A stretch of 64,000 nucleotides of DNA. Origin: Eledone cirrhosa. Taxonomy: Eukaryota. The stretch spans positions 34,472,001 through 34,536,000 of the forward strand of contig OZ024742.1 of assembly GCA_964016885.1 (NCBI GenBank), written 5' to 3'. The notes below the pieces were generated by a model that had not been told where the DNA came from, did not search any database, and saw only the letters and a program-made list of their open reading frames with translations. Position numbers and translations under genes: made by a program. Below are positions 51,668 to 51,978 of this stretch, one piece after another; within the stretch, counting starts at the first letter, position 1, and each line of letters begins with the position of its first letter.

Positions 51668-51978
51668 GTAGGAGGTGAGTTTTATTGTAGTACAATAAAG
51701 CAATGCAGATATCGGATAAGAAGCACTCTACAGTTTGTGGGACTGGAGTATGCATAATATAAGATCAAAAGATGGTTAAAGGAGTTCCATATATTTTATT
51801 ATGCGCATTTCAAAATATGTTGATTAAAAACTGCACTATCAACAAGTGTTTTTTTAGCCTTCATATCATGTTCTCCTGTTTTATCTGATGAAAACACAAA
51901 TATTATTGCTTGATGATGTTTGTTTTTGAAATGCGCATAATAAAATATATGGAACTCCTTTAACCATCTTTTGATCTT
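51668..51978. mobile_element. Family A fold-back insertion with intact hammerhead (51877-51947, +)
   Basis: Minus long arm 51668-51815 and plus arm 51816-51978 ending gatctta(TA)n. Confidence 0.85.

Follow-up and report, generated by a model that had tools for sequence, protein, structure and literature searches.

Bulged hairpins beside the arm ends of PLE-like fold-back insertions in Eledone cirrhosa as candidate RT landing sites

In L1 twin priming, two primers lie on opposite target strands and the arms are joined 5′ to 5′ with their 3′ ends outward. One primer uses the poly(A) end and the other a variable internal site, and the arms do not overlap. Canonical EN+ PLE units consist, like the insertions described here, of an inverted 5′-truncated copy with a one-sided tail (Craig et al, 2021, PMC8557442; Arkhipova et al, 2013, PMC3846280), and the same structure is shown for a rotifer (PMC3846280). 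The papers cited here name the origin of such inverted, one-side-tailed insertions as an open question. The Hydra clade of C-terminal EN+ PLEs (PMC8557442; including Hydra-1_Obim) shares with our elements the linker, the nuclease motifs, a hammerhead motif and insertion into (TA)n. A close biochemical parallel to what we propose is the Anolis Poseidon PLE PAc, which nicks and extends both strands from two internal start sites that bound the tail and lie in an AC-rich stem-loop, does not need ribozyme cleavage and is predicted to form a dimer (Frangieh et al, 2024, PMC11167929). PAc belongs to the Poseidon clade, and its starts lie 111–118 nt inside the ORF, within a single AC-rich stem-loop and without target homology (PMC11167929), whereas the Hydra-clade sites precede the ATG, each just 5′ of one of two repeated hairpins, and are usually at UA patches. 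Non-LTR retrozymes are described as short non-coding repeats that carry type I hammerheads and are related to PLE pLTRs; they are tandem arrays by definition (bioRxiv 10.64898/2026.07.22.740005); our 510-bp family is likewise tandem, whereas most of our copies are inverted terminal fragments. No other family here is tandem, and tandem units each with an intact hammerhead were not found.

The window, a stretch of 64,000 nt from Eledone cirrhosa (GCA_964016885.1, contig OZ024742.1, positions 34,472,001–34,536,000), is rich in microsatellites. A preliminary description had proposed that in five families insertions into (TA)n have two opposed arms with their 3′ ends outward, one running about 100–155 nt past the hammerhead cut and the other stopping much nearer. 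This arrangement was seen at 51668–51977, where the two arms stand head-to-head with (TA)n tracts on both flanks; the arm at 51812–51977 stops 38 nt past the predicted cut, and the long end of the same insert lies 132 nt past it. All 12 short ends named earlier proved real to within 0–3 nt, and long ends were measured at about 98–154 nt past the cut. The copies of this family (family A) are:

51668–51811, minus strand: long arm with hairpin 1 inside, ending in (TA)n 57 nt past the hairpin
51725–51749, minus strand: bulged hairpin 1 (ACTC, 4-bp inner stem, 7-nt loop, TA bulge, GAGT)
51812–51977, plus strand: short arm with type I hammerhead motif (core 51885, cut 51939/51940), stopping 7 nt before the hairpin position
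11361–11541: fold-back, long (minus) and short (plus) arm, 10-nt arm overlap, hairpin 11418–11442 (minus)
29296–29552, plus strand: single long arm, hammerhead core 29366, cut 29420/29421, hairpin 29471–29495; reference for read alignment
1018–1181, minus strand: single short arm (self-BLAST and printed sequence, hammerhead scan)

Folding predicts the same stem for the copy at 29471 as for the hairpin at 51725–51749. The other families contribute:

40116–43587: Hydra-clade PLE unit (40-kb PLE), hammerhead core 43489, short end 43587
40116–40458, minus strand: inverted long arm of the 40-kb PLE, hairpin 40182–40201
40463–42112, plus strand: 5′-truncated RT and GIY-YIG ORF of the 40-kb PLE, one in-frame stop (41621–41623)
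26539–26915: 40-kb PLE fold-back, short (minus) and long (plus), hairpin 26835–26854
1205–1413: family G fold-back, long (minus) and short (plus), hairpin 1253–1276
4495–4640: family G fold-back, hairpin 4543–4566 (minus)
5951–6088: family G fold-back, short (minus) and long (plus), arms without overlap, hairpin damaged
31701–31815: family G fold-back, hairpin 31749–31772 (minus)
48474–48621: family G fold-back, hairpin 48521–48544 (minus)
63277–63463: family G fold-back, hairpin 63325–63348 (minus)
646–725, minus strand: family G single long arm, hairpin 694–717
5351–5416, plus strand: family G short arm, head-to-head with an arm of another hammerhead family (4691–5350, minus)
29057–29214, plus strand: family E single short arm, degenerate hammerhead
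63553–63659, minus strand: family E short arm, head-to-head with an unrelated hammerhead arm (about 63667–63866, plus)
11007–11280, minus strand: family E single long arm, long-loop hairpin from 11090
31298–31530, minus strand: family E long arm, long-loop hairpin from 31378
31531–31635, minus strand: hairpin 3′ half (TT GAGC ACT), followed after 19 nt by an ATG with the first 22 codons of a Hydra-clade ORF, the whole in tandem ahead of family E
29938–31153: fold-back of the 510-bp tandem family, long end 29938, short end 31153, hairpin 1 at 30022–30045 (minus)
30750–30771, plus strand: hairpin-2-like motif of the 510-bp family, 4 nt after the long-end position
52143–52514: fold-back of a family not named earlier, short (minus) and long (plus), hairpin 52438–52463, no hammerhead found
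9341–9488: fold-back, also of a family not named earlier, of a hammerhead arm (minus, short) and a hairpin arm (plus, long), hairpin 9427–9445; classes assigned by the hairpin only

All 13 same-family head-to-head inserts, in a list compiled by eye from self-BLAST and the printed sequence, combine a long with a short arm (family A, two; 40-kb PLE, two; G, six; 510-bp family, one; 52143–52514; 9341–9488), as had been proposed for inverted pairs. If arm classes were independent at 1:1, this would have P = 1e-4; the multi-copy families alone give ten of ten. The rule held less well as a statement about five families: eight of the 12 named ends lie in same-family fold-backs, whereas 1021 and 29214 belong to single arms, and 5416 and 63555, taken for fold-backs of the same kind, each stand head-to-head with an arm of another family. 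None of the four window copies of family E is a fold-back. About ten copies are single arms (A at 1018 and 29296; G at 646 and 5351 and two diverged ones; all four of E). Because no complete long-plus-short fold-back with both ends was found in 78 metagenome loci, reverse-strand screen included, the pairing rule is one for the window. The rule itself is already published, as the one-sided PLE tail.

Two other origins were rejected. A long-read fold-back artefact would not give ends that are fixed within each family and reappear both in independent short reads and in another organism, and terminal inverted repeats of a DNA transposon do not fit asymmetric ends with an RT ORF inside. Two more long-plus-short fold-backs, at 9802–10273 and 10521–10983, lack the RYTC/GARY hairpin and have tails of ordinary length, about 39 nt and 35 nt. 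In the second, the long end again lies inside a repeat, and a hammerhead core at 10835 was noted with this pair. At the family G insert 4495–4640, 15 nt of the left flank (4374–4388) are repeated inverted on the right (4658–4672).

Four read runs were aligned to family A (29262–29564). The raw reads are RAD-seq, and their counts are not copy counts, a single read start representing 1141 and 1540 molecules. Among the best-supported 3′ loose ends, which are the ones reported (224 further ends are weaker), were 29463/29466 into (TA)n (492 and 507 reads, two runs) and 29554 into (TA)n. A third end, at 29453 with an agreement of 0.57–0.79, resembles a divergent subfamily; these ends do not form a histogram per copy. 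In the contigs of two organisms, summed depth falls by half at 29460 (from 1.29M to 0.64M and from 846 to 446). In all four opposite-strand joints found in the reads, one arm starts at or after the short site. ATATG is the common start of three family A arms (29290–29296, 51812 and 1181), other copies reaching further 5′; the reads have a depth step at this start and, in the second organism, a palindromic loose end there (29295).

Near the start of every long tail (13 fold-backs and family E) lies a bulged hairpin of the form RYTC, inner stem, loop, inner stem, 2-nt bulge, GARY, which is damaged in the 5951 copy. A descriptor of this motif gave 17 matches in the window: 15 in long tails, one reverse reading of one of these and one unrelated. 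In repeat-stripped sequence there were 23 matches compared with 2.6 ± 1.7 in shuffles, a comparison that overstates independence, since the hairpins are related by descent. The family E hairpins came in with a relaxed scan, as did a further motif of the 510-bp family and about ten unrelated matches. Fold z-scores were modest (−0.05 to −2.3), and the minimum-energy fold departs from the proposed hairpin for family G, for 9341–9488 and for two of the metagenome loci (L005 and L026).

The arm ends lie close to these hairpins. Thirteen of 16 short arms stop 4–7 nt before hairpin 1 (11 by script, two by eye); two stop at 8–9 nt against an imperfect reference, and one has an indel. The tail is hairpin 1 plus a spacer. 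It measures about 80–110 nt in the hairpin families of the window, longer than the 30–40 nt published for canonical EN+ PLEs, compared with 55–74 nt in related loci and 35 and 39 nt in the two non-hairpin families. The long end of the 510-bp family lies 4 nt before its hairpin-2-like motif, and long ends are internal: the sequence continues beyond them in the 510-bp tandem and, in related loci, into the ORF. No hairpin 2 was seen within the window for families A, G, E and the 40-kb PLE; from the 510-bp family, 31595–31635 and the related loci, we infer that it follows their long ends as well.

Most ends fall at a UA patch of 2–5 nt. The best UA microhomology was rejected as the determinant of the end, since longer or equal patches elsewhere are unused (family A, +6 to +11), and so was a fixed distance from the ribozyme: across the named families the short end lies 17–54 nt from the cut but 4–9 nt from the hairpin. 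The preliminary description had explained the two arm classes by twin priming, with one primer at the RNA 3′ end and the other at a fixed internal UA placed relative to the ribozyme. That model accounts for two end classes, for the UA patches at short ends and for the four read joints, all non-overlapping. Against it, read-through copies place the long end inside longer sequence, at a site just 5′ of the second hairpin; the distance to the cut varies as given above; and one fold-back family has no hammerhead. Nor do the insertions resemble those of L1 in detail, since both sites are fixed and internal and the arms mostly overlap, non-overlapping arms being confined to three of the 13 window pairs and the four read joints. 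Ribozyme cleavage, moreover, is dispensable in vitro (PMC11167929), and we regard the model in this form as very improbable. What survives is its core of two separate primings at fixed sites with short UA microhomology to (TA)n, which fits both the arm content and the read joints. A target-site duplication would be hidden in (TA)n.

The 40-kb PLE can be placed in a described clade. Its ORF (40463–42112) combines RT with a C-terminal GIY-YIG nuclease, and 573 aa aligned at 37% to the protein P0001 and reached residue ~700 of full-length homologs; named matches include proteins of Argonauta hians and Octopus sinensis. Pfam gave no match on this copy. The translation of 41624–42112 contains a CxCX5C linker, CxxC before E and CxH after N and no CCHH; the RWK and DKT motifs are present in full-length homologs, the N-terminal region being lost in the window copy. 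Judged by these nuclease motifs in the translated sequence, the 40-kb element is of the Hydra clade, and its insertion into (TA)n agrees. An inverted 5′-truncated copy with a one-sided tail is found at 40116–43587 and in 12 further fold-backs. The remaining families are likely Hydra-clade too: A, G, 510-bp, 52143 and 9341, which have no ORF in the window, are linked to it by the common hairpin only, and family E adjoins a Hydra ORF start.

A full type I hammerhead motif is present in family A and the 40-kb PLE. The 510-bp family has one motif per arm, one with CCGATGA, recognized by eye and missed by the descriptor; family E is degenerate (core CAGAAGA, triplet CUU); and family G has half a hammerhead, with no CUGANGA half in 15 aligned segments. 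Because these motifs are partial or degenerate, the cut sites of G, E and the 510-bp family are putative. Among the 150 of 208 Rfam matches listed, mostly microsatellite miRNA noise, there was no hammerhead match for these insert families.

Since the descriptor was drawn from the window, relatives of the 40-kb PLE in metagenome contigs provided an independent test. We found 389 relatives and used the best 80, which gave 78 loci; the viral contigs searched contained no relative, and the family A pattern had no match in the metagenome contigs. The order in these loci is hammerhead, 33–57 nt, hairpin 1, 38–53 nt, hairpin 2, a short stretch and the ATG. Two hairpins with a period of 55–74 nt were present in 53 read-through segments, a redundant set of about 25 distinct pairs by eye, and the motif occurred 115 times in sense and seven times in antisense orientation.

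Pairing was assessed on 78 distinct hairpins anchored on the two flanking motifs only, a set whose relatedness inflates the counts. The hairpin covaries: the first inner pair was Watson–Crick in 77 of 78, with C-G and T-A replacing each other (55 C-G, 21 T-A, 1 A-T; shuffled 45), the second in 52 of 77 with all four types (shuffled 24) and the third in 39 of 63 (shuffled 16). When 70 hairpins were aligned with MAFFT, no gaps were placed inside them. The inner length varies from 4 to 17 nt, which argues against a double-stranded site of fixed spacing. Compared with published Hydra sequences, the octopod copies carry the paired changes ACTC/GAGT and GTTC/GAAC.

Of 27 terminal segments with a reference, five at contig edges and two whose reference was below 90% identity were dropped, and copy ends were mapped on the others. 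Sixteen of the 20 mapped ends lie 0–6 nt before a hairpin, three at hairpin 1 and 13 at hairpin 2, two of the 16 (L050 and L051) being a single insertion. The four misses are L034, in mid-spacer 27 nt before hairpin 2; L058, of a one-hairpin family, about 11 nt after the hairpin; L006, at 12 nt (3 nt in the survey of read-through segments); and L071, a script artefact.

In two places (L009:2830–3051 and L046:2225–2450), two different Hydra-clade families stand tail to tail on one (TA)n tract, both long-ended. Hairpin 2 of one Hydra-clade metagenome locus (L009:437–464) has a 23-nt core, loop included, identical to that of the family A hairpin at 29471–29495; no other likeness was seen near the shared core, which may reflect deep conservation, transfer or chance.

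The reading that we favour, with slightly more belief than doubt, is that the inserts are PLE products and that the twin hairpins serve as two RT landing sites on the RNA, each nicked (TA)n strand priming at one of them. The hairpin would be read as RNA by the RT, and two RT-nuclease copies would occupy a single transcript, one per hairpin. Both (TA)n strands would be nicked and each would prime through a UA patch of 2–5 nt, the start at hairpin 1 giving the short arm and that at hairpin 2 the long arm. The RT on the long arm would often pass the short site, either through strand displacement or with a further RNA copy as template, a step that we invoke because the arms overlap in 10 of the 13 pairs. 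The two cDNA 3′ ends would finally be joined head to head through microhomology or hammerhead stems. More tentatively, and as a possibility to which we would not quite commit ourselves, the duplicated RNA hairpin of Hydra-clade elements may be the cis signal long looked for in internal initiation, by which two subunits use one RNA and both (TA)n strands; the tail would then be the repeat unit between the landing sites, and the one-sided tail and the inversion would both come from programmed twin priming.

The content of the arms bears on how many templates were used. In at least six of the 13 pairs each arm holds sequence that the other lacks, so that two primings are needed. The overlap (about 19 to over 250 nt in the 10 pairs, with 10 nt at 11361–11541) counts against simple twin priming on a single RNA. 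Private bases are often common to both arms of an insert, with mismatches of 0/50, 0/111, 1/248 and 0/19, which fits one template per insert. At 1205–1413 the arms differ in subfamily-type bases beyond the cut site; this mismatch and two cross-family joins point to the occasional use of two templates. One could therefore suppose that the hairpins set the starts but that the arms come from two RNAs in one complex, or from two units of a multimeric transcript, with subunits of fixed hairpin preference. The overlaps, the subfamily mismatch and the different-family joins at 5350/5351 and about 63660 speak for this, as does a palindromic helix III of the kind seen in hammerheads proposed to act as dimers (PMC4209133). 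We nevertheless think it quite improbable as the usual route: an extra asymmetry would be required to avoid long-long and short-short pairs (none of 13), and most arm pairs share private bases, although RNAs from the same locus would do so too. The two joins (4691–5416 and 63553–63866) have no (TA)n between their different-family arms and are possible two-RNA events.

In a snap-back model, a single cDNA would fold back and copy its own sequence, slipping into (TA)n as soon as it met a good UA. Self-priming at a palindrome has been proposed for inverted PLE junctions (PMC3846280); the short arm is nested in the long one at 4495, 31701 and 48474, and there are pivots in hammerhead stems at 1205 and 63277 and the palindromic loose end at 29295. 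Yet at least six of the 13 short arms have upstream sequence that their long arm lacks, better UA patches go unused (family A, +6 to +11), and single arms stop at the same sites. Snap-back is thus refuted as a general route and has very little probability left as an explanation of the arm classes, although some junctions may have formed in this way.

Initiation at two hairpins on the RNA has its other competitor in the nuclease. Here the GIY-YIG nuclease would recognize the hairpins as single-stranded DNA, whether in cDNA or in an extruded pLTR; trimming near hairpin 1 or 2 would set the ends, and the tail would be a resolution product. The published account assigns the tail to 'EN-mediated resolution' (PMC8557442), the D. 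virilis tail is reported to be required for EN recognition (PMC11167929), and Ssn, of the GIY-YIG family, cuts ssDNA near hairpin-forming sequence (PMC11893778). Wobble pairs favour neither strand, since G-U and A-C counts at inner pairs 1–4 are 7 and 9, and RNA and cDNA thus look alike in this respect. In addition, four of six full-length copies with near-identical references (L003, L021, L059 and L061), among loci that had been chosen for full length, also have 5′ starts 5–14 nt before a hairpin. In the sole PLE assayed in vitro, by contrast, both tail boundaries are RT start sites (PMC11167929). A cut would also have to discard the hairpin, which the short arm lacks, and the UA patches at the ends suit priming on (TA)n. 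We regard nuclease trimming as unlikely and retain the two RT landing sites as the preferred reading.

What goes beyond the published rule is the pair of hairpins proposed behind it in Hydra-clade elements, of which we found no description in the literature searched. Published Hydra consensus sequences contain them: that of Hydra-1_Ajap opens with two such hairpins, and that of Hydra-2_Amil stops after one (file S7, PMC8557442). There, the twin hairpins and their link to the ends are unannotated, and 'hairpin' and 'stem-loop' do not occur in the main text or supplement text of PMC8557442. In the literature covered, mainly freely readable papers, there was no account of these hairpins or of PLE twin priming. 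The twin hairpins offer a concrete, mutable signal covering both ends and the tail length in one clade; if the preferred reading is right, a hairpin of roughly 25 nt would be a portable tag for the RT start position. The motif may also be a simple way of placing short non-coding repeats from TA-rich genomes in the Hydra clade. Telomerase RT has its closest relatives among the PLE RTs (PMC8557442), which lends comparative interest to a structural signal beside a template start.

The window contains several further repeats. A second PLE ORF (44954–47221, minus strand) encodes RT and GIY-YIG with a CX4CxxC linker of the Neptune/Nematis type; close to its start, 75 nt of (TA)n are read in frame. 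Two inverted 5.8-kb copies (94%) of a LINE lie at 20349–26150 (minus) and 55374–61143 (plus), the element having AP-endonuclease, RT and zf-RVT domains. Palindromes centred on TA-rich tracts, with no insert, lie at 38748–38907, 50180–50295 and 61467–62142, and others at 17155–17258 and 18905–19008. An abundant short interspersed repeat of 120–200 bp occurs at 890–1017, 2282–2355, 3753–3944, 14326–14527, 15374–15573, 16279–16400, 19183–19381, 26192–26411 and 32937–33166. Related hammerhead-bearing repeats of about 400–470 bp are found at 49269–49991, 52550–52904 and 4691–5350; Rfam HH9, the only hammerhead family among the matches listed, scored 37.7 bits at 49715–49786, below its curated cut-off. 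The copy at 52.7 kb continues into an 18-bp satellite (52904–54300).
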